DNA from: Thermoanaerobaculia bacterium | GTDB taxonomy: Bacteria; Acidobacteriota; Thermoanaerobaculia; Multivoradales; JAGPDF01 | DNA length: 64,000 nucleotides | Assembly (NCBI GenBank): GCA_050186295.1 | Contig: JBFWYP010000006.1 | Location: forward strand, 65,336-129,335 | Direction of reading: 5' to 3' | In this document: positions 5,260-63,591 of the stretch, one piece after another | Layout of the letters: every line of letters starts with the position of its first letter | Numbering within the stretch: position 1 is the stretch's first letter | Program-made: the position numbers and the translations under genes | Notes under the pieces: model-generated | Told to the model about the DNA's origin: nothing | Database searches by the model: none | What the model saw: the letters and a program-made list of their open reading frames with translations, nothing else

Positions 5260-6590
5260 CCGCGGGCGAGCTGGGGCGGAAGCTGGTCCACATGGCAGTG
5301 GGCGGGATCGCCTTCGCCGTACGGCCGCTCGGACTCTGGGGCTCGCTCGCCGCCGCCACCGCGGCGATCGTGCACAACCTGTTTCTCTTCCCGCTCTACG
5401 GCGGGCGCCGGCTCTGGCGGGCGCACGAAGCCGAGCGCGGACGGGCCCTGGGCATCGTGCTCTATCCCGTGGCGGTCCTGCTCCTGCTCGTCGCCTTCCA
5501 CGCCCGCCTCGAGGTGGCGGCGGCGGCCTGGGGAATCCTCGCCTTCGGCGACGGCATGGCGAGCCTCGTCGGCATGTCGCTGGGAGGAACGAATCCGCTG
5601 CCCTGGAACGGACGCAAGAGCTGGGTGGGAACCGCGGCCTACACCCTCTTCGGAGGGATCGGCGCCACGCTCCTGCTGGTCTGGACCGCTCCGGGCACCT
5701 ACTCGCTGCCGTTCGCGCTCGCCATCGCGTTCGCGACTGCGCTCGTCGCCGCTCTCCTCGAGTCGCAGGCGCAGGGGCTCGACGACAACCTCGGCGTGCC
5801 ACTGGTCGCCGGGCTGCTGCTCTACTGCCTGACGATGACCGCCGGTCACTGGGGTGTCGTCGCGAGCGGCGGATTCGCCCGTGCCGCCGCGCTCGGAGTC
5901 GCCGTCAACGTCGTCCTCGCGGCGGCGGCCTGGCGGACCGGTGGCGTCGGCCGCGCCGGGGCGATCGTCGGGGTGCTCCTCGGGAGCACGATCTGGGCGT
6001 TCGCCGGCTGGCAGGGCTTCCTCCTGCTCTTCGTCTTCTTCGTTCTCGGGACGGCCGCGACCAAGCTCGGCTACGCGGCCAAGGCGGCCGCCGGGATCGC
6101 GCAGGAGAAGGGGGGGCGACGCGGACCCGGCAACGCCCTTTCCAAGACCTCGGTGCCGGCCGCGGCGGCGCTCTTCGCCGCGACCACCGGGCGCCCGACC
6201 CTCTTCCTCCTGGCGCTCGCCGGCGCCTTCGCGACGGCGGCCGCCGACACCGTCTCCTCGGAGGTCGGGAAGGCCTACGGCCGGCGGACCTTCCTGATCA
6301 CCACCCTGCGGTCCGTTCCGCGCGGTACGGACGGTGCGGTGTCGCTCGAAGGGACCCTGGCAGGCCTCCTGGCGGCGCTCGTCGTCGGGGCCATCGGCGC
6401 GGCGTGCGGGCTCTATCCGGGGAGCGGTGTCGTCGCCGTGGTCGCCGCGGCAATGGTGGCGACCACGGCGGAGAGTGTGGTCGGCGCGACGCTCGAGAAG
6501 CGCGGACTCCTCGACAACGACGCGGTCAACTTCCTCTGCTCGCTGGCCGGAGCGCTGGTCGCCGCCTTCGCGGCGCCGCTGGTCGCATGA
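5247..6590 (+). CDS. Polyprenol kinase-like (dolichol/phytol kinase family) N-terminal domain fused to DUF92 (TMEM19/VTE6-like) integral membrane domain
   Basis: Multi-TM protein. The N-half has the GDGMASLVG...NGRKSWVGT motif of CTP-dependent dolichol/phytol kinases. The C-half has the GGRRG..N...AADTVSSEVG signature of DUF92. It overlaps the upstream gene by 13 nt. Confidence 0.6.
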   Translation: MAQLTAGELGRKLVHMAVGGIAFAVRPLGLWGSLAAATAAIVHNLFLFPLYGGRRLWRAHEAERGRALGIVLYPVAVLLLLVAFHARLEVAAAAWGILAFGDGMASLVGMSLGGTNPLPWNGRKSWVGTAAYTLFGGIGATLLLVWTAPGTYSLPFALAIAFATALVAALLESQAQGLDDNLGVPLVAGLLLYCLTMTAGHWGVVASGGFARAAALGVAVNVVLAAAAWRTGGVGRAGAIVGVLLGSTIWAFAGWQGFLLLFVFFVLGTAATKLGYAAKAAAGIAQEKGGRRGPGNALSKTSVPAAAALFAATTGRPTLFLLALAGAFATAAADTVSSEVGKAYGRRTFLITTLRSVPRGTDGAVSLEGTLAGLLAALVVGAIGAACGLYPGSGVVAVVAAAMVATTAESVVGATLEKRGLLDNDAVNFLCSLAGALVAAFAAPLVA

Positions 6591-54305: not shown

Positions 54306-56999
54306 GTGACCCGTCCCCGACGCCCCGGGTGCCGCACCCGCCTGGCCCACTGGACCCTCTTCCTCGCCGCGATCGCGAGTTTCGTCGCGGCACCGTCTCC
54401 CGCAGCGGACACCGCGCTCCCGCCGGCAGAGGAGTTGCGGCGCTTCTTCGACGAAGGGCCCGCCTGGCTCCTGCCGGTTGCCGAGAAGGAGCGCCTGCGC
54501 GGGCTGCCGGAGGGAGAGGCGCTCGCGGCGATCCGCGCCTTCCTCGCCGCCGACCCGGTACCGTCCACCCCGGGAAACGAGCTCGTCGAAGGGATCGAAC
54601 GCCGGCGGCGGGCGATCTGGGCCGACGGCCTCGCGTTCGGGGACGAACGCGCCCGGGCCCGGTTCCTTCTCGGCCCTCCCCGCGAGCGGGTCCGGATCGA
54701 ATGTGGCGAGACCTACCGGCCGGCCGAGGTCTGGAGCTGGGGGCCGGTCGAGGCGCCGCGCAGCCTGGTCTTCTTCCGGCCGCGACCCGACTCCTACTTC
54801 GTCGCCTGGCGGCCGACAGAATCGAAGCGCCTGCTCTACACCGAGGAGATGGAGTACTACCTCGAGCAGTGGGACGAGCTGCGCGGTCTGCTCTCCGGAA
54901 AGCGTCCCGACCGGGTGATGTGCAACGAAAGCAAGCTGATCGACCGGGTGACCGGAGTCAACGGTCTGTTCGGATTCGAGAAAGACCGGCCCACGGACGC
55001 CGCGATCGATCGTTTCTTCGCGCCGCCCGTCGAGGTGGCCGGCTGGGCGACGGCGGCGGCTGCGGAGGTGGTCCGCGTACCCCAGATCGTGCCCGGAGCC
55101 GAAGCGCCGCCGGAAGCCGAGCCCGTGCCGTCGCCCGCGGCCGCAGCCGCCGCGAAACGCCACGGTGCGCGACCCGGGGCCGCCGAGACCGACGCTCCCG
55201 CCGCGAGCCCGGTGCCGATGACCATCCTCGAAGAGCTGCCGATCGAGGCGATCCGGATCGGTTTTCCCGAGCGCATCGACCAGCGCCTGCAGATGCGGGT
55301 GCGGATCCTTCTCCCCGCCGGTCTCCAGCCGGGGATCGCCGAGGTCGAGGGCGGCCGCGAGTCGCGCTTCTCGGTGACCGGGAGAGTCGAGCTCGCCGGA
55401 GCACCGTTCGACGAGTTCCGCAACCGGTTCGTCGTCGTGGCGCCGGAGCGACCCGCCCCGGTCGTGCTGATCTCCGAGCGTGCGTTCCGCGCCGGCGGAC
55501 CGTACGTCCTGACCCTCGAGGTCCGTGACGAGATCTCGGGCAAGACGAGCTTTGTCTCGCGCGGTTTCACGGTTCCGGCCGAACCGATTCCCGAACCCGA
55601 TCCGAGCCCCGAGGGCGCGATCGAAGTCGCCGGCCAGGAGACCGGGCTCACGAAGCGCGCGGCGCGCGATGCGCTGGTCCTGATGCCACCGCTCTCGGAC
55701 GTCGTCTTCGGGCTCTGGCGCGCCGAGGCGATCGTCGTCGGCGAGCGCATCCGGCGGGTCGCCTTCTACGTCAACGGCACCCGTCAGCTCGAACGCTCGA
55801 CCGCCCCCTGGTCGGCCGAGCTCCGGCTGCCGAACCTCCCGACCGAGCTGGTGGTGCGCGCGGAAGGGCTCGACGAGAACGGCGAGGTCGTCGCCGCGGA
55901 CGAGGTCTTCCTCAACGAGCCGCAGGCCGAGCCGAAAGTACGCCTGCTCGCGCCCGAACGTGGCAAGCGGGTGGTCGGACGGGCGGTGGCGCGCGCCGCC
56001 GTCGTCGTCCCCGAAGGGAAGCGGATCGAATCGGTCGAGTTCCGGCTCAACGACGAGGTGCTTGCAACCCTCGCCAGACCGCCCTGGGAGGTCGCGTTCA
56101 CCGCTCCGTCGAGCTCCGATCCGGTCTATCTGACGGTTGCCGCGACCTACGTCGACGGGACGCGGGTCGAGGATTTCCGGGTGCTCAACGGCGGACAGTT
56201 CTCGGAGCAGGTCGATGTCGATCTGGTGGAGATCTTCGCCACGGTCTTCGATCGCTCCGGCCGGATCGTCGAAAACCTCGAGCAGGGCGACTTCACCCTT
56301 CTCGATCGCGGCCGGCCGCAGACGATCAGCAGGTTCGAGCTGATGCGCGATCTGCCGCTCTCGGTCGGGATCGTGCTCGACACGTCGGGCTCGATGCGCG
56401 AGACGATCGGCGAGGCGAAGCGCGCGGCGGCCGACTTTCTCTCGGCGGTGGTACGGGTCAAGGACCGCTGTTTCGCCACCTCCTTCGCCGACCGTCCGCG
56501 TCTGCTCATGCCCCTCACGTCCGATGCGCGAGCCGTCGAGGCGGCCTTTCGCGACCTGCCGGCGGTGGGCAACACGGCGCTGCACGATGCGATCCTCTTC
56601 TCGCTCTACCAGCTGAAGGGGGTGCGCGGACGGCGTGCGATCGTCCTGCTCTCGGACGGCGACGACACCTCGAGTCTGGTCGGATACGACGACGCGCTCG
56701 AGTTCGCCCGCCGCAGCGGAACGGCGATCTACACCATCGGCCTGGACATCGGCAAGACGCAGATGACGGTGCGCGGAAAGCTCGAGAAGCTCTCTTCGGA
56801 GACCGGCGGACGATCGTTCTTCGTCTCGAAGGCGAGCGATCTCGCCGGCGTCTACGGCGAGATCGAGCGCGAGCTCCGCAGTCAGTACCTGCTGGCCTTC
56901 GCGCCGACGCCGCAGGCGAAGAGCGGCGTCTTCGCTCCGGTCGAAGTGCGAGCGGGGAGCGGTTTGAAGGTTCGGGCGCCGCGCGGCTACTATCCCTGA
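54306..56999 (+). CDS. Large secreted von Willebrand factor A (VWA) domain protein with Acidobacteria-type N-terminal region
   Basis: Signal peptide. The C-terminal VWA domain has a MIDAS-like motif VGIVLDTSGSM and LLSDGDDTSS. The long N-terminal region resembles the VWFA-related Acidobacterial domain family. Confidence 0.7.
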   Translation: MTRPRRPGCRTRLAHWTLFLAAIASFVAAPSPAADTALPPAEELRRFFDEGPAWLLPVAEKERLRGLPEGEALAAIRAFLAADPVPSTPGNELVEGIERRRRAIWADGLAFGDERARARFLLGPPRERVRIECGETYRPAEVWSWGPVEAPRSLVFFRPRPDSYFVAWRPTESKRLLYTEEMEYYLEQWDELRGLLSGKRPDRVMCNESKLIDRVTGVNGLFGFEKDRPTDAAIDRFFAPPVEVAGWATAAAAEVVRVPQIVPGAEAPPEAEPVPSPAAAAAAKRHGARPGAAETDAPAASPVPMTILEELPIEAIRIGFPERIDQRLQMRVRILLPAGLQPGIAEVEGGRESRFSVTGRVELAGAPFDEFRNRFVVVAPERPAPVVLISERAFRAGGPYVLTLEVRDEISGKTSFVSRGFTVPAEPIPEPDPSPEGAIEVAGQETGLTKRAARDALVLMPPLSDVVFGLWRAEAIVVGERIRRVAFYVNGTRQLERSTAPWSAELRLPNLPTELVVRAEGLDENGEVVAADEVFLNEPQAEPKVRLLAPERGKRVVGRAVARAAVVVPEGKRIESVEFRLNDEVLATLARPPWEVAFTAPSSSDPVYLTVAATYVDGTRVEDFRVLNGGQFSEQVDVDLVEIFATVFDRSGRIVENLEQGDFTLLDRGRPQTISRFELMRDLPLSVGIVLDTSGSMRETIGEAKRAAADFLSAVVRVKDRCFATSFADRPRLLMPLTSDARAVEAAFRDLPAVGNTALHDAILFSLYQLKGVRGRRAIVLLSDGDDTSSLVGYDDALEFARRSGTAIYTIGLDIGKTQMTVRGKLEKLSSETGGRSFFVSKASDLAGVYGEIERELRSQYLLAFAPTPQAKSGVFAPVEVRAGSGLKVRAPRGYYP

Positions 57000-57000
57000 C

Positions 57001-57651
57001 ATGAAGAGCGTCACCTTCGCAATCGCCCTCCTCGTCGGTGGCGCCGTCTCCGTCGCTGCGCCGCCCGATCCGCCGGTGCACGTCGAGATGAAGCTCGAGC
57101 GCCTCAACCGGACCTACTCCGACTTCGTGCCGCCGCTGGCGGGAATGGACGAGGGCGGGGTCGTGGTCAAGCTGACCTCGCCCCGGCAGACGCTGATCCT
57201 GCGCGATCACACGATCCGCCTCACGCCGCTCGAGAACGGAACCATCGACGCCGAGATCGATCTCGAGATCCAGGGCAAGGGCTCGCTGGTCGCGGACGTC
57301 GCGCTCGGACCGGTGGCGCAGCAGTTCCCGGACGAAGTCGTGGTTCCGCCGCAGACGATCTCTCTCGCCGGGAACATCCGCATCAGCCGCGTGGCCGGTG
57401 GCTACTCGGTGACGGCCAATTCGTTGCCCGATTCGGTGCGCGTCGCCGTCCAGTCGCAGAAGGTGAATCAGATCCTCGCACTGTGCGACAACGCGGCGGT
57501 GATGACCCTGGGAGCGATCGACTGCCGCGGACTCGACAAGGCGCTGACCCGGCCGGAACTCCCGATCCCGTCCGGGCAGAGCTTCGTTCTCCAGGACGCC
57601 GATCTGACGGACGAGAACCGCCGGGAGCTCGACACGCTGGTGACGCCCTGA
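57001..57651 (+). CDS. Secreted hypothetical protein (coupled to VWA gene)
   Basis: Signal peptide MKSVTFAIALLVGGAVSVAAP. The ATG lies 1 nt after the VWA stop. No recognised motifs. Confidence 0.45.
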   Translation: MKSVTFAIALLVGGAVSVAAPPDPPVHVEMKLERLNRTYSDFVPPLAGMDEGGVVVKLTSPRQTLILRDHTIRLTPLENGTIDAEIDLEIQGKGSLVADVALGPVAQQFPDEVVVPPQTISLAGNIRISRVAGGYSVTANSLPDSVRVAVQSQKVNQILALCDNAAVMTLGAIDCRGLDKALTRPELPIPSGQSFVLQDADLTDENRRELDTLVTP

Positions 57652-57669
57652 AGCGACGCCGACCGGCGA

Positions 57670-60597
57670 TCAGATCGACGGCAGCGACAGATCCTTGCGG
57701 GTGGCCGCCTCCATGATCGCCCGGTTGAGCGGCACCTGGAAGAGAAAGCGCTGGCGCTTCGAGCTTTCGAGAAAGGCGGTCAGGCGCATCAGCTCGTCGA
57801 ACGCCTTCTCGAGGTGCTTCACCGGGGCGAGGCGCTCCTTGAACTTCGTCTCGAGCCATTCCGCCGCGAGGTAGAGCTGGAAGTCGAGCAGCTCGCGCGA
57901 CGGAGCGAGCGGAAGCCTCTCCATTTCCCGCTGCAATTGTTCGTAGGTCGTCCGTACTCCCTCCGCCCGTGCCCGACCGATCTCGGCCTCGATCCGGTGG
58001 GCGAGATCCGTGAGCCGGCCGGCGGACTTGCCGAGCGCTTCGTGGAGGTCGGCGGCCTCGTCGAAGTGGGCAAGCGCCGCCTCGTAGCGGCGCAGGCGGG
58101 ACTGGATCCGACCGAGGAGCTGATTGGCGTCGGCGAGCGGCTCGCCCGCCGGGAGGAGCGACAGCGAAAAGTGCGCTTTCCGGGCCTCGGCCAGCGCGTT
58201 GTCGGGCTGATCGAGGAGCAGGAGGTTCTCCGCCACCGCGAGCCGGGCGATCGCTTCGCCCATGGTGTCGTCGCGCCCTTCGCGCAGCGCCAGCGCGCGG
58301 CGCAGGACCGGGGCGGCGCCGGCGACGTCTCCGAGGCGGTTCATCGCCCTGCCGACACCGACCAGGGCGAACGCTTCCTCGGCCTCGGAGCGATCGTTGG
58401 CGAGCAGCTCCCGTGCCTCTTCGAAGTAGGCGAGCGCGCTCGGCGCGTCGCCGCGCGCCAGGGCGACGGCGCCGAGGGCCGTGAGCGAGGCCGCGACTCC
58501 ACCGCCCCCCTCGCGTCTCCGCGCTTCGAGCGTTTCGATGTGGAGTGCGTGTGCCTCCTCGAGGCGAAACTCGTGGAAGGCGACGTTGCCGAGCAGGAAG
58601 CGGCAGGTGGCGGCGAAGCCGCGCCGACCGCGATGCTCGGCGACGGCGAGCGCCTTGGCGAACAGATCGCTCGCCTCGGCGGTCTTGCCCTGTCTCACCA
58701 GGACCCGTCCGAGCTCGACGAGGAGCATCTCCTTGCGCCGGTTGTCGCCGTCGCGCGACGCCGCGAGCGCCTGTCGCAGGACGGCCTCGGCCTCGGGGTA
58801 GTGCCCCGCCATCTGGGCCAGATCGGCCCGCAGCGAAGCGATGGCGAGAAAGCGCTGCGGCTGGTCGCGCGCCAGTTCGAATCCGCGTTCGAGGGCCGGA
58901 GCCAGCTCGTGCAGACGGCCGAGTCGCCGGGCGAGCGGCAGGAGGATCCACAGGAGGTCGTTCTCGAGACGCGGTTCGTTGCCGCGCTCCTGGAGGCTGG
59001 CGAGCTCCAGGCGGAGGGCGGTGAAGAGCGGTTCGCGGGGGAGCCTGCTCGAGCTCCGGACCGCGTCGATCAGCACTCCGGCTCCCGACTCCGTACCCTT
59101 GAGCATCCCGTAGGAGGCCCAGAGCTCCTCGGCCGTCGAGGAGCGGGCGGCGAGGAGCTCGCCGAGCTCGCTGCGCAGGCGTTCCCGAACCGGCTCCTCG
59201 AGAGTGTCCGCGAGGGCTCGCCGGATCGCCGGAGAGGCGAGGGCGATGCCGTCCCCCCACGGGCCCGCGTCGGCGACCACCAGCCCGGCGGCGAGGTTGC
59301 CCGCGCTCCAGTCTCCTTCCGGTCGCTCTCCTCCGAGGGCGAGCGCCGCCGATCCGAGCTCGCTCGCGGGAACCGCGGTCTCGGCCAGGGTCAGCAGTCG
59401 CAGCGCCAGCGAGGCGCCGTGGCGCATCGCTTCGGCCTCGACATGGGCAATGAACCTCCGGCTCGGCTGCAGGCGGGTCGGACCTTCGGCGCCACTGAAG
59501 AAGAAGGAGCCGAAGACCTGACGCAGCTTGCGGTCGCGCACCAGGAAGAGGAGCGACTCCTCGAGCGCGAACGGATTTCTCGCTACGCCCGACGCCAGCT
59601 CCTGGGCGACCGGCTCGGGCAGAGAGAGACCGCGGAACAGCTGCGTCGTCAACTGTCCCCAGGCGGCTTCGTCCGGAGCGTCGACGAAGAGGGGGGCATC
59701 GCCGGAGAGATCCCGCAGGACGTCGATCGGGGTTCTCGAGACCAGGACGATCTGCAGCTCGCTTCCGAGGCCCGGATGCTTTCCGAGCTCCTCGATCTCG
59801 GCCCAGACCGTCGGTGGCGCGACGTCGAGGTGGTCGTAGACCACACGGATCGGCCGCAGCGGTTCGCCGGCGAGCTCCCGCGCGATCGGCGTGAGGATCC
59901 GGCTGCCGGCGTCGCGCCAGATCGCGGCTTCGCCCGCCCCGCGCAGGACCTCCCAGAGGAGGCGCGTCTTGCCCACCCCGAACGGTCCTTCGAGGCGCAG
60001 CACCGGCTCCTTGAGCCGCCGTCGGAGGTCGGCTTCGATCACCGGACGCCCGACCCACTTGATCGATCGCGAGAGGACTTCCGGATTGCGCCAGGTCGGG
60101 ATCGCGACGGCGCGGGGCCGGACCGACGTCAAGGGGATCAGCCGGCCGGCACCGAGCGACAGGTTGCCGGCGGCTTCGACCGAGTGCGACCCCTCGAGCT
60201 GGAGCGCGGCATGGGTCGTGAGGAGGATCTTCCCTGGAGCCAGGTCGGGCCGGGTGGCGCGCAGCTCCTCGAGCAGCGGTTCGGCGACGAGCTCCACACC
60301 CGGGCCGACCCGGGCGGCCGCCGGAACGACGACCAGCCGGGCGGTGACCGGGCGCTTGCCGCCGGAATCGTCCCGGACGAGATCGCCGGCGAGCGCCACG
60401 GCGCGGTCGAAGATCGCCGGGTCGCCGGGCACCGGCAGGAGGAGCCAGCAACCGGGACCTGCCGGGATCACGCCGGCAGTGCGGGCTGCCGCGGCGGTCA
60501 GGCGTTCGATCGCCCCCGAGCCGGACGGATCCCAGGCCAGGAGGGCGGCCGCGGGGAGAACGCGCTGGACGGGTTCGACGAAGGGAAAGGGCCGCAT
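57670..60597 (-). CDS. Large P-loop NTPase (AAA_16/STAND-like) + TPR-repeat signal-transduction protein with ~190-aa N-terminal domain of uncertain type
   Basis: Walker A EGPFGVGKTRLLWEV. The C-terminal ~450 aa are TPR-like helical repeats. Start trimmed to ATG 60597 because the upstream frame overlaps the divergent gene 60631-61179. Confidence 0.6.
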   Translation of the reverse strand: MRPFPFVEPVQRVLPAAALLAWDPSGSGAIERLTAAAARTAGVIPAGPGCWLLLPVPGDPAIFDRAVALAGDLVRDDSGGKRPVTARLVVVPAAARVGPGVELVAEPLLEELRATRPDLAPGKILLTTHAALQLEGSHSVEAAGNLSLGAGRLIPLTSVRPRAVAIPTWRNPEVLSRSIKWVGRPVIEADLRRRLKEPVLRLEGPFGVGKTRLLWEVLRGAGEAAIWRDAGSRILTPIARELAGEPLRPIRVVYDHLDVAPPTVWAEIEELGKHPGLGSELQIVLVSRTPIDVLRDLSGDAPLFVDAPDEAAWGQLTTQLFRGLSLPEPVAQELASGVARNPFALEESLLFLVRDRKLRQVFGSFFFSGAEGPTRLQPSRRFIAHVEAEAMRHGASLALRLLTLAETAVPASELGSAALALGGERPEGDWSAGNLAAGLVVADAGPWGDGIALASPAIRRALADTLEEPVRERLRSELGELLAARSSTAEELWASYGMLKGTESGAGVLIDAVRSSSRLPREPLFTALRLELASLQERGNEPRLENDLLWILLPLARRLGRLHELAPALERGFELARDQPQRFLAIASLRADLAQMAGHYPEAEAVLRQALAASRDGDNRRKEMLLVELGRVLVRQGKTAEASDLFAKALAVAEHRGRRGFAATCRFLLGNVAFHEFRLEEAHALHIETLEARRREGGGGVAASLTALGAVALARGDAPSALAYFEEARELLANDRSEAEEAFALVGVGRAMNRLGDVAGAAPVLRRALALREGRDDTMGEAIARLAVAENLLLLDQPDNALAEARKAHFSLSLLPAGEPLADANQLLGRIQSRLRRYEAALAHFDEAADLHEALGKSAGRLTDLAHRIEAEIGRARAEGVRTTYEQLQREMERLPLAPSRELLDFQLYLAAEWLETKFKERLAPVKHLEKAFDELMRLTAFLESSKRQRFLFQVPLNRAIMEAATRKDLSLPSI

Positions 60598-60630
60598 CTT
60601 TGATATAAGAATCCGGATCGGAGGAACTTT

Positions 60631-61179
60631 ATGGGCTCTCGCCGCCTTTTGAACAGAATCTACTACTTCACGGTCGAGGATGAAGGGATCCTCGCCGAAG
60701 CGTTCCCGAAGTTCGAACAGCAGAGCTTCTGCATCGCCTACAAGGTCCATGGAACCGACGACGTGTTCGTCGCCTCGGCCGAAACCAAAGAGTCGATGGA
60801 CCGCCACGACGTGCCGTACAACCTCCTGGCCGAGGAAGAGGCGAACCGGATCTCGATCCTGCATTCGCCGCAGTCGAAGGAGGAGCTGGCAGACCACGAG
60901 GACGCCCTCAAGTCGCTGGTCCTCGCCCACCGGGCGATCGCAGCCGCCTGCGTCGGTGTGAACGGGGATGCCGACATCGGCATCGCCCTCTCCCGCGGTC
61001 CGGAGGATTTCACCTACTTCACCGCCCCGGCCGGGCACACCTTCATCTTCCGGCTGTTCCAGGAGCGCAAGGAGGCGGTGCAGTTCCTCAAGAAGCGGAC
61101 CGGTGGCGACAAGAAGGCGCTCGAGTGGGCCGAAGGCCTCCACCTGACATCTTCCAAGGAGCTCAAGAGTTATCACTGA
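60631..61179 (+). CDS. Hypothetical protein (182 aa, K/E/F/Y-rich, slightly lower GC than flanks)
   Basis: Non-artefactual amino-acid composition and an AGGAAC-like RBS. No motif recognised. It is divergent from the STAND-like gene, with a 33-bp spacer. Confidence 0.45.
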   Translation: MGSRRLLNRIYYFTVEDEGILAEAFPKFEQQSFCIAYKVHGTDDVFVASAETKESMDRHDVPYNLLAEEEANRISILHSPQSKEELADHEDALKSLVLAHRAIAAACVGVNGDADIGIALSRGPEDFTYFTAPAGHTFIFRLFQERKEAVQFLKKRTGGDKKALEWAEGLHLTSSKELKSYH

Positions 61180-61264
61180 GAGCGCGTTCGAGCCGACCTA
61201 CTCGGTATCGGCGCTCGGGCGCGAGATCAAGGAGCTCCTGGGCGGGGCGTTCGCCTCGGTCTGG

Positions 61265-62407
61265 GTGGCGGGCGAGATCCAGCGCTACAAGGCGAGCGCA
61301 TCCGGGCACCACTATTTCGACCTGGTCGAGAAGGGGGAAGGCGACCGGATCGTCGGCGTCCTGTCGGCGGTCGTCTGGAAGGGCGAGTTCCTGCGCCTGC
61401 GGGCGGCGCTCGATCGCGCCGGCGCGAAGCTCGCCGACGGACAGAAGGTGCGCTGCCGCGTCGCGGTCGATTTCTACCCGCCCGGCGGCCGCCTCCAGGT
61501 CCAGGTCCGCGAGGTCGACCCGAACTTCACCCTGGGCGAGCTCGCCCGCCGGCGCGAGGAGACGATCCGCGCGCTCGCGGACGGAGGTCTCCTGGAGCGC
61601 AACAAGGCGCTGCCGTTCCCGGAGATTCCGCTGCGCATCGGCCTCGTCACGTCGCAGGGCAGCGCGGCCTACCATGACTTCCTGGCGACGCTCGCGGAGA
61701 GCGGCTACGGCTTTCGCGTGCTCTTCGTGCACGCGGCGGTGCAGGGCGTCGAAGCGGAGCGGAACGTGCCGTCGGCCATCGAACTGGCAGCGGCTGCCGG
61801 CGCGGAGGCGCTGGTGCTGATCCGCGGTGGCGGATCGAAGAGCGATCTGGCGGCGTTCGACAGCCGGGCGGTGGCCGAGGCGGTGGCGCGCGCGTCGCTG
61901 CCCGTGCTCACCGGACTCGGGCACGAGATCGACGAATCCGTGGCCGATCTCGCGGCGCATCTGTCGTTCAAGACCCCCACCAAGGTCGCCGAGTACCTGG
62001 TGGCGACGGTGGCCGCGGCCGAAGAGTCGATCGCACGGCTCTCCGATCGTTTGCTGCGCGAAGCGCGCCGCAACCTCGCCGAAGCGACGAATCGTCTCGG
62101 CCGGGCGGAGCGGCGGGCAACAACGGCGCGCCAGCGACTGCAGCGGGCCGGGGCGCGACTCGCGACGCTCGCCGAGGCGCTCAAGCGCGCGGCCGACTAT
62201 CGCCTCAGAAGCTCGGTCCTGAGGCTCGATGGCTGGGCGCGGCTCCTGGCCGGCTACCAGCCGGAGAGGGTGCTGGCGCGCGGGTACAGTCTGACGCGCG
62301 ACGCCAGCGGATCGGTGCTGAGGGACGCGGCCGCGGCCCTGCCGGGAATGCGCATCACGACGGAGCTGGCGCGGGGGCGTCTGATCAGCCGGGTGGAGGA
62401 GTCATGA
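61265..62407 (+). CDS. xseA: Exodeoxyribonuclease VII large subunit
   Basis: Conserved OB-fold start VWVAGEIQRYKASASGHHYFDLVE (compare E. coli [24 protein letters not shown]). The catalytic region is LIRGGGSKSDLAAFD. The annotated GTG start at 61265 truncates conserved upstream residues (see findings). Confidence 0.75.
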   Translation: MAGEIQRYKASASGHHYFDLVEKGEGDRIVGVLSAVVWKGEFLRLRAALDRAGAKLADGQKVRCRVAVDFYPPGGRLQVQVREVDPNFTLGELARRREETIRALADGGLLERNKALPFPEIPLRIGLVTSQGSAAYHDFLATLAESGYGFRVLFVHAAVQGVEAERNVPSAIELAAAAGAEALVLIRGGGSKSDLAAFDSRAVAEAVARASLPVLTGLGHEIDESVADLAAHLSFKTPTKVAEYLVATVAAAEESIARLSDRLLREARRNLAEATNRLGRAERRATTARQRLQRAGARLATLAEALKRAADYRLRSSVLRLDGWARLLAGYQPERVLARGYSLTRDASGSVLRDAAAALPGMRITTELARGRLISRVEES

Positions 62408-62704: not shown

Positions 62705-63106
62705 ATGTCGAGGGGGAAGTCGGTGGGTGGGCGATGGCTGGTGGTGCTCGGGGTGCTGGTCGCCCTGCTGCTCGCACTGCGTCTCCTGCGCCACGAACCG
62801 GGCATCGAAGTCGGAGTCACCCCCGAAATCGCCGGCACCTGGACGACGGATGCGCCGGGCTACGGCGATCGGTACCTGGAGATCTCCAGCAGCGAGATCG
62901 CGTTCGGACTCGGCGACGAGGGCGAGTCGCGGCATCCGGTGCTCGGTGTCCGCCGCGTCGAAGGTCCGGGTGCGTCGTCGACGTACGTCGTGCGCTACGG
63001 CTTCGAGGACGAAGGGAACGCCGAAGGGAAACTCGAGCTCCTCGTCGCGGGCCCGGGACTCGCGATCCGCAGCCAGCCCGGAATCCACTGGGAGCGACGG
63101 CCATGA
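62705..63106 (+). CDS. Hypothetical N-terminally anchored membrane protein
   Basis: One TM helix ([18 protein letters not shown]). It is translationally coupled to the downstream pseudopilin gene (ATGA at 63103-63106). Confidence 0.4.
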
Positions 63107-63591
63107 ACGGCAGCGCGCACAGGCGCCGCTCCGTTCCGCGGCGATGGCGTCAGGTCGGATTCACGCTGGTCGAGCTCCTGCTGATCATCGCGTTGATCTC
63201 GATCATCGCGGCATTGGGAATTCCGTCTCTGCTCCAGGTGATCGAACGTGTGAAGATCCAGCGGGCGATCGCCGACCTCCGGGCGATCGAGTTCGAGATC
63301 CAGAACTTCGAGAACCTCTACACCCGTCTTCCCGCCGAGATGGAAGAAGCGATGCCGCACGCGCCGCTCGACCCGTGGGGCCACCCCTACGTCTACTTCA
63401 AGTACGGCGGACCGGGCTGGCGCGGCAAAGCGCGGAAGGACCGCTTCCTCGTGCCGATCAACAGCTCGTTCGACCTTTACAGTGTCGGTCGGGACGGCAA
63501 GAGTCGGCCGCCGCTGCAGAATCCCGTGAGCCACGACGACATCGTGCGCGCCAACGACGGCGCGTTCTACGGCCTCGGACGGGACTTCTAG
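63103..63591 (+). CDS. Type II secretion pseudopilin GspG-like / type IV pilin-like protein
   Basis: Prepilin leader and cleavage/methylation motif [23 protein letters not shown] (G|FTLVE). The GspG-like C-terminus is [10 protein letters not shown]...[11 protein letters not shown]. Confidence 0.7.

Follow-up and report, generated by a model that had tools for sequence, protein, structure and literature searches.

A predicted degenerate cyclase-fold head on a STAND-type ATPase and TPR protein of Thermoanaerobaculia

A 64,000-nucleotide stretch of a Thermoanaerobaculia bacterium contig (JBFWYP010000006.1; hereafter the window) carries on its minus strand a gene for a 975-amino acid (aa) protein in which a P-loop NTPase is followed by TPR repeats and preceded by about 190 residues that had remained unassigned. 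What is this N-terminal domain, and does the protein act in signalling or in antiviral defence, both of which the original prediction, made from the letters of the window, had considered possible? The analysis presented here indicates that the gene probably encodes a lineage-specific signal-transduction protein consisting of a cyclase-homology domain (CHD), an AAA_16-type STAND ATPase and a TPR array, in which the N-terminal cyclase domain has degenerated to a non-catalytic module. Two parts of this statement, the domain architecture and the exclusion of a defence function, are regarded as very likely.

The N-terminal domain

Sequence searches did not recognise the N-terminal region as a cyclase. 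Residues 1–196 had no match in Pfam, NCBIfam, PADLOC or PHROGs, and the Guanylate_cyc model (PF00211) gave zero matches in the 975-aa protein and nine distant homologues. A profile of 27 family N-domains (alignment A2) retrieved no cyclase from the PDB sequences, the best match being a secretin fragment with an E-value of 0.6, which was treated as chance, and an hhalign comparison of the N-domain with a five-sequence cyclase alignment resulted in a probability of 2%, with collinearity in the C-terminal half alone. A search of 1.84 billion cluster representatives with the same profile found 122 proteins, all of them family members and none a genuine cyclase; nearly all full-length proteins among them are about 1000 aa long and carry the domain at their very N-terminal end, and the search revealed no other plausible domain arrangement.

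The AlphaFold2 model of the N-domain, calculated from the family alignment, was confident (pLDDT 86, pTM 0.75), with secondary structure elements in the order b1-a1-b2-b3-a2-b4-b5-a3-b6-a-b7-b8. The top 50 Foldseek matches to this model were all cyclases (E-values from 3e-7 to 3e-5, probability 1.00, TM-scores 0.5–0.6), and two independent structure aligners agreed on the cyclase fold. As modelled, the domain unambiguously has the fold of class III cyclases, a palm-like core of the order beta-alpha-beta-beta-alpha-beta with dimerisation arms. The earlier suggestion that the first ~190 residues could be a degenerate nucleotide cyclase-like domain was thus right at the level of the fold.

Catalytic positions were located by a secondary-structure alignment of the model to PDB cyclase sequences, not by superposition, and residue conservation was calculated for 83 family representatives clustered at 50% identity (alignment A3). 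The first metal-binding Asp is expected at the C-terminal end of b1 (residues 22–24) and the second in the b2–b3 turn (residues 47–49); no conserved acidic residue was found in either segment among the 83 representatives, position 23 being P, G, A or S, position 24 D, A, P or R, and positions 47–49 G/R/D, P/E/D and G/D/R, respectively. The b1–b2 segment comprises 19 residues versus about 32 in cyclases, and the alpha1 'GFT' phosphate-binding helix is therefore missing. The same alignment of the 83 sequences revealed neither a conserved Lys before the turn (positions 44–45) nor an Asn in the helix 107–114, the counterpart of the 'TVNxAxR' helix, while Arg at positions 114–115 is the majority residue in just 24–35% of them. 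The conserved residues of the head (W22, P55, G58, D59, D/E64, A66, P92, G93, T127, E135, G151, and P155) look mostly structural. In the linker that follows, the majority residues are W169 (80%), R170 (76%), N171 (88%), and R184 (94%). Because both the C1-type and the C2-type half-site residues appear to be absent from its sequence, the head should be inactive as a homodimer or as either half of a heterodimer.

Conversely, the N-domain could be a working nucleotidyl cyclase whose active site is non-canonical, which would make the protein a TPR-regulated, ATP-gated cyclase producing cAMP, cGMP or another cyclic nucleotide. The class III fold itself agrees with this, as do the presence of a genuine cyclase with an AAA_16 domain among the nearest detectable ATPase relatives and the retention of some acidic positions (D59 in 69%, D/E64 in 94%, D/E106 in 80%, D/E111 in 76%, and E135 in 78% of representatives); moreover, the selection of substrate is reportedly atypical in Rv0386 of Mycobacterium tuberculosis. 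However, both positions at which every active class III cyclase carries a metal-binding Asp vary in this family, which also lacks the alpha1 phosphate-binding segment and the Asn/Arg pair of alpha4, and none of ten family members gave a PF00211 signal. The order of the strands suggests that the acidic residues which are conserved sit at the other end of the sheet. An active enzyme of this kind is therefore considered quite unlikely.

Whether the domain exists at all depends on the start codon, and the high GC content of the window (about 70%) creates long spurious open reading frames (ORFs) on both strands. The mechanical ORF runs from 57670 to 61176 on the minus strand and would encode 1168 aa from a GTG start. 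The ATG at 60597 (CAT at 60595–60597, stop codon at 57670–57672) was accepted as the real start because about 50 full-length homologues are 974–1068 aa long and many of them begin with MRPFP, protein-level conservation extends from about residue 12, and the 193 codons upstream run antisense to a strongly conserved 182-aa gene, p182, with 705 homologous clusters. A database protein 100% identical to the 975-aa sequence (P0001) is annotated as 'TPR protein [Thermoanaerobaculia bacterium]'. A start further downstream, which would leave no N-terminal effector and which had been raised as an objection at the outset, is excluded by the starts of the homologues and the conservation of residues 12–196. 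Spurious long ORFs do arise in high-GC DNA and the mechanical ORF does reach 61176, but residues 12–196 are kept at the protein level in the 83 representatives, with invariant motifs, are predicted to fold with high confidence, and begin at an equivalent Met in homologues, while the upstream extension lies antisense to a conserved gene. Either alternative, a downstream start or the 1168-aa ORF, is extremely improbable, and the longer ORF was dropped in view of the homologue N-termini, the N-domain conservation and p182 on the opposite strand.

Very long antisense or out-of-frame ORFs (1168, 1022, and 929 aa) overlap the gene on both strands between 57383 and 61176. They are typical high-GC artefacts, which calls for caution in any ORF-based reading of this window.

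The ATPase core, the TPR array and the C-terminal tail

The Walker A motif, earlier placed at about residue 200, was located at residues 204–211, within the stretch GPFGVGKTRLLWEV (residues 204–217). Its residues G204, G207, and G209 are invariant, and K210 is present in 82 of the 83 representatives. D255 of the Walker B motif is acidic in 100% of them; the residue that follows it is D or E in 57% of the family (D in 46/83), but His (H256) in the window clade, where D/E258 is found two residues later. The next hydrophobic strand is followed by a sensor-1-like Arg, R288, present in 95% of the sequences. The best-conserved block of the protein is the stretch (G)NPFALEE...LRQVFGSFFFSG, which comprises the GxP-type motif and a probable winged helix, with P342, F343, A344, L345, E346, E347, R359, G363, F366, and G369 being invariant.

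Searches with Pfam models gave a mixed result. The best NTPase model for the 975-aa protein, nSTAND_NTPase5, remained at E=0.048 (13.9 bits versus a cut-off of 34). AAA_16 was detected in six of nine homologues and exceeded its cut-off of 32.6 bits in two of them, P0193 (44.8 bits) and P0048 (33.6 bits), but not in the window protein, and Guanylate_cyc was without a match. This near-miss is explained by features of the window clade, namely a Walker A to Walker B interval about 56 aa shorter than in deeper family members, a His after the Walker B Asp (YDHLD versus DDxE), and an Arg in place of Gly in the GxP motif (R340). A search with the profile of the NTPase and winged-helix region (A5) resulted in eight matches, including protein P0312, identified by Pfam as Guanylate_cyc plus AAA_16. 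The family profile was aligned to P0312 by hhalign with a probability of 94.8% and an E-value of 4.9e-8 from Walker B to the GxP motif, GNPFALEE being paired with GIPLFVEE. In view of this alignment and the AAA_16 scores of deeper members, the protein appears to be a derived member of the known cyclase–AAA_16(–TPR) lineage of STAND proteins. Together, the Walker A motif, the sensor-1-like Arg, the GxP motif and the match to P0312 bear out the STAND-like P-loop NTPase originally proposed. H256 and R340 suggest that hydrolysis is slow or altered in the window clade.

The helical region between the ATPase module and the TPR array (residues 401–589) has no Pfam match. Residues ~590–860 matched the TPR_12 (E=9.7e-21), TPR_10, TPR_2, TPR_7, and, weakly, TPR_MalT models, and the full-length profile searched against the PDB matched TPR proteins only. 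In the C-terminal tail R948, R950, F951, and L952 are invariant. No C-terminal helix-turn-helix (HTH) was found in Pfam or NCBIfam, nor any other C-terminal domain in Pfam, and a profile of residues 855–975 retrieved nothing with an E-value below 0.1 from the PDB sequences. Both the TPR repeats after the NTPase and the lack of a C-terminal output domain had been recognised previously. Within alignment A3, identity to the window protein is 0.45–0.46 in the TPR array and the GxP–winged-helix block and is lowest, 0.28–0.29, in the head and the NTPase core. The coordinates of all features are listed in Table 1.

Table 1. Features of the NTPase gene and its divergent neighbour in the window (residue numbers refer to the 975-aa protein)
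Feature	Positions	Strand	Basis or characteristic residues
Whole gene, 975-aa pseudo-cyclase / AAA_16-type STAND ATPase / TPR protein	57670..60597	-	Translation, homologues
Residues 12–161, predicted degenerate class III CHD fold	60115..60564	-	Without conserved metal-binding Asp
Residues 162–196, linker	60010..60114	-	Family-specific motif P-W169-R170-N171-P; 'V-x-R184-P' lead-in to P-loop
Residues 197–335, P-loop NTPase core, AAA_16/STAND type	59593..60009	-	
Walker A	59965..59988	-	G204-P-F-G207-V-G209-K210-T211
Walker B	59824..59847	-	R-V-V-Y-D255-H-L-D258
Residues 336–400, GxP-type motif and probable winged helix	59398..59592	-	Window R340-N-P342-FALEE (family GNPFALEE); LVRDRxLRQVFGSFFFSG
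Residues 401–589, conserved helical middle region, arm-like	58831..59397	-	W430, P446-W-G448, W493, W550
Residues 590–860, TPR array	58018..58830	-	Pfam
Residues 861–975, conserved C-terminal helical tail	57673..58017	-	RQRFLFQVP-H-AI--AA
33-bp divergent spacer	60598..60630		Extended -10-like TGATATAAG (60601–60609, +); Shine-Dalgarno GGAGGA of p182 (60620–60625)
p182, conserved 182-aa protein, first of the same-strand cluster p182-xseA-xseB	60631..61179	+	

Conservation of the locus and its neighbours

In a pattern scan that covered a single genome of each GTDB species, 49 loci were found in 49 different assemblies, one copy in each. All belong to metagenome-assembled genomes (MAGs) of Thermoanaerobaculia/Acidobacteriota except for two records titled 'bacterium' and one 'Amaricoccus' contig. 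The latter (L014, NZ_JAGOID010000103.1, 10.5 kb), binned as Amaricoccus sp. (Alphaproteobacteria), encodes an NTPase with 62% identity next to VWA and p216 neighbours of the Thermoanaerobaculia type, and most likely reflects a binning error rather than horizontal transfer.

The gene order in the window is YhaM-like HD (-), VWA (54306–56999, +), p216 (57001–57651, +), NTPase (-), p182 (+), xseA, and xseB. The same order was seen again in genomes whose NTPases share 34–64% identity with the window protein, and the chromosomal position is held from 34% to 100% identity. The p182 gene, usually with xseA and xseB, was present within the fetched flank in 36/49 loci, VWA in 35/49, and both in 28/49; additional flanking genes have cytochrome-oxidase assembly functions (UbiA, SCO1, DUF420, and COX subunits). 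The divergence of the NTPase correlates with that of each neighbour (Spearman rho 0.82–0.92), which indicates vertical inheritance in place. The survey of conservation and context yielded a fixed architecture and a conserved housekeeping neighbourhood. Three departures from the common order were noted. In one subclade (L012–L014 and L018–L021) the NTPase stands beside VWA with other genes replacing p182-xseAB; the replacements in L001/L012 and relatives are glycosyltransferase genes. One deep clade carries three small genes (154, 150, and 112 aa) between the NTPase and VWA (L003, 11174–12411; the same in L032), the middle one having weak HTH_3/HTH_31 matches; the insert is possibly a small cassette, mobile or toxin-antitoxin-like in nature. 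Finally, on the 1.67-Mb contig of locus L008 the backbone HD-VWA-p223-p182-xseA-xseB is identical, and an 80-bp gap (5921–6001, corresponding to 57651–60631 of the window) occupies the place of the NTPase gene.

These data bear directly on the proposal that the protein is an antiviral STAND system of the Avs type, in which the TPR array would sense a phage protein and the N-domain would act as an abortive-infection effector. The generic tripartite layout of N-terminal domain, STAND NTPase and C-terminal TPR fits Avs, the gene varies in presence and absence, as in L008, and the small genes of L003/L032, one of them HTH_3-like, adjoin it. However, neither Avs nor any other specific PADLOC model matched in ten family members, where PADLOC reported the generic TPR model PDLC01169 in 9/10 and one weak mad8 fragment, and the single PHROGs match was marginal (E=0.005, over the TPR region, to a family of unknown function). 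The protein has no effector of the nuclease, protease, SIR2 or TIR type, its N-domain being a degenerate cyclase fold. The gene is single-copy, limited to one class, and fixed in position among xseAB, the YhaM-like HD gene, VWA, and cytochrome-oxidase assembly genes; it co-diverges with these neighbours, does not lie in a variable island, and has spread in neither a patchy nor a mobile manner. The sensor region is among the best-conserved parts of the protein, the opposite of the outcome of an arms race. Antiviral defence is therefore very unlikely, and a defence-island reading was rejected in view of the conserved housekeeping locus and its vertical inheritance. Of the two functions initially entertained, signalling is favoured by the relationship to the cyclase/AAA_16/TPR lineage, while defence is disfavoured by the lack of an Avs match, the housekeeping locus and the conserved TPR array. 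The alternative named at the outset, a clear class III cyclase in a housekeeping-type neighbourhood, essentially describes what was found, except that the cyclase is not clear by sequence and looks catalytically dead.

The spacing of 33 bp between the NTPase start and the divergent 182-aa ORF was reported exactly (60598–60630), and the unusual amino-acid usage of p182 was also recognised correctly: K, E, F, Y, I, and N make up 33% of its residues versus 19–23% in most neighbouring genes (36% in the 78-aa xseB product). The accompanying hint of a foreign composition was not borne out. The GC content of p182 is 0.62 versus 0.67–0.72 in the neighbours, but its GC content at third codon positions (0.86 versus 0.87–0.92) is native, so the difference reflects amino-acid constraint, and a foreign origin was rejected. 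No other gene of the locus is as well conserved: p182 has 58–84% identity where the NTPase has 34–64%, and nearly all of the proteins listed for its 705 homologous clusters are exactly 182 aa long. It has no Pfam family. Residues 35–73 (60733–60849) bear a weak likeness over about 40 residues to ribosomal protein bL31 type B (PDB 7jil_a, E=0.034), which is probably due to chance and was unsupported by the fold search.

In closer clades a conserved extended -10-like element, TGATAKAAG, lies about 21–28 nt upstream of the p182 ATG; it is unique within the window, where 0.06 occurrences are expected by chance, and in the window clade it is located 3–4 nt from the start codon of the NTPase gene. 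A -10-like TTATAT on the other strand stops 6 nt short of the NTPase ATG, and one could speculate that the NTPase mRNA may be leaderless. A consensus promoter and terminator scan of positions 57400–61400 found nothing. The divergent arrangement of the two genes raises the possibility that the NTPase protein is a dedicated regulator of the divergent p182-xseA-xseB cluster, or of p182 protein function. Such a role would account for the tight head-to-head layout, in which 35 of the 36 loci with p182 have the two genes within ~350 bp. This layout persists down to 34% NTPase identity, and in the window clade the promoter-like element is close to the NTPase start. On the other hand, neither Pfam nor the PDB profile of the C-terminus detected a DNA-binding domain in the protein, the promoter element (5966–5977 in L008) and p182-xseAB are unchanged in L008, which is without the NTPase gene, the two units are uncoupled in the subclade L012–L014 and L018–L021, and p182 is far more widespread, with 705 clusters versus about 120 NTPase representatives. 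Dedicated regulation of the cluster thus appears unlikely, and p182 is treated here simply as a neighbour of the NTPase.

The VWA protein matches the acidobacterial family TIGR03436 (1.5e-53) and Big_7. It is followed, with no intergenic gap, by p216, whose 216-aa product has an apparent N-terminal signal peptide. The VWA-p216 pair (54306–57651, +) is conserved class-wide and convergent with the NTPase gene, the stop codons being 18 bp apart. Downstream of xseB, an ORF at 63100–63591 (+) has a prepilin-type N-terminus, as judged by eye, and is likely to encode a type II secretion or type IV pilin-like protein.

Proposed mode of action and relation to known systems

The gene is monocistronic, and its product has no enzymatic effector or DNA-binding domain. 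By analogy with the biology of STAND proteins, the well-conserved TPR array would bind a conserved endogenous ligand or partner protein, and this binding would license the binding or exchange of ATP at the P-loop and subsequent oligomerisation. Since class III cyclase domains are functional only as dimers, oligomerisation would bring the N-terminal cyclase-fold heads together. The heads would then more likely act non-catalytically, through dimerisation, nucleotide binding or recruitment of a partner; they probably do not make cAMP or cGMP, because the predicted metal-binding and transition-state residues are not conserved.

Several observations weigh against this interpretation. The loss of the catalytic residues was read from a secondary-structure-guided alignment; the window protein is below the threshold of every NTPase Pfam model (E=0.048); and the replacement of G by R in the GxP motif, together with the H after the Walker B Asp, means that the ATPase cycle may be atypical. 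In addition, the gene is missing from the otherwise identical locus L008, so that at least one lineage can dispense with it, although it is old and syntenic. A more specific version, in which the degenerate head has been repurposed as the output of the STAND switch, to serve as a receptor for nucleotides or second messengers, as a decoy that regulates a true class III cyclase by heterodimerising with it, or as an enzyme whose new active site is formed by D59, D/E64, D/E106, and E135, is possible, though we consider it doubtful.

The closest known counterparts are the CHD-ATPase-TPR class III cyclases and the M. tuberculosis Mclx proteins (Rv0386, Rv1358, and Rv2488c), which share with the window protein an N-terminal CHD fold, a STAND/AAA_16 P-loop module with the GxP(L/F)xxEE motif, and helical repeats. 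Homology is detectable between the ATPase modules of the family and of P0312, the Guanylate_cyc plus AAA_16 protein. The Mclx proteins have a CHD-AAA/NB-ARC-LuxR architecture, and Mclx2 and Mclx3 lack some of the canonical cyclase residues (PMC4452763). In the family described here, the CHD is undetectable by sequence and apparently devoid of all canonical catalytic residues, the C-terminal LuxR HTH of Mclx and LAL-like proteins is absent, and the distribution is limited to Thermoanaerobaculia/Acidobacteriota. A precedent for non-catalytic cyclase-like domains is PDB entry 6yii, the 'Class III adenylyl cyclase-like ATP-binding protein from Pseudomonas aeruginosa', described by its depositors as a transcriptional regulator; literature searches on 6yii and on CHD-STAND pseudoenzymes returned nothing directly relevant. 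The STAND regulators of the MalT/AfsR/LAL type (AAA_16 or NB-ARC plus TPR_MalT) likewise have a P-loop NOD followed by a TPR 'sensor' superhelix, and weak TPR_MalT and AfsR-TPR matches were obtained, the remote full-length matches P0055–P0066 being SARP/AAA_16/NB-ARC plus TPR proteins; however, their output is a DNA-binding LuxR HTH or SARP domain, in place of which a cyclase-fold head is found here. Avs proteins share the order of N-terminal output, STAND ATPase and C-terminal TPR-like sensor, whereas the present family has no Avs model match, no toxic effector domain, and a vertically inherited housekeeping locus. The CHD-AAA_16-repeat architecture is therefore already known from Mclx and P0312; the novelty lies in a closed family, restricted to one class, whose CHD can no longer be recognised by sequence, is apparently dead, and is combined with a TPR tail but no HTH.

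Through these results the ~190 N-terminal residues, unrecognised by any sequence database, receive a fold assignment and an evolutionary origin, and about 120 clusters from the little-studied Thermoanaerobaculia (Acidobacteriota), whose members are known here as MAGs only, are delimited as a closed family. They also illustrate that the layout of N-terminal domain, STAND ATPase and TPR is in itself no evidence of anti-phage defence, since genomic context and co-divergence with neighbours favour in this case a role in housekeeping or signalling. In practical terms the impact is modest. Should the head prove to be repurposed, it would represent a class-wide conserved pseudo-cyclase signalling module, possibly acting with p182, its very highly conserved neighbour; and if the head binds nucleotides or pairs with real cyclases, the few cyclase-homology domains without catalytic activity would gain a bacterial example.

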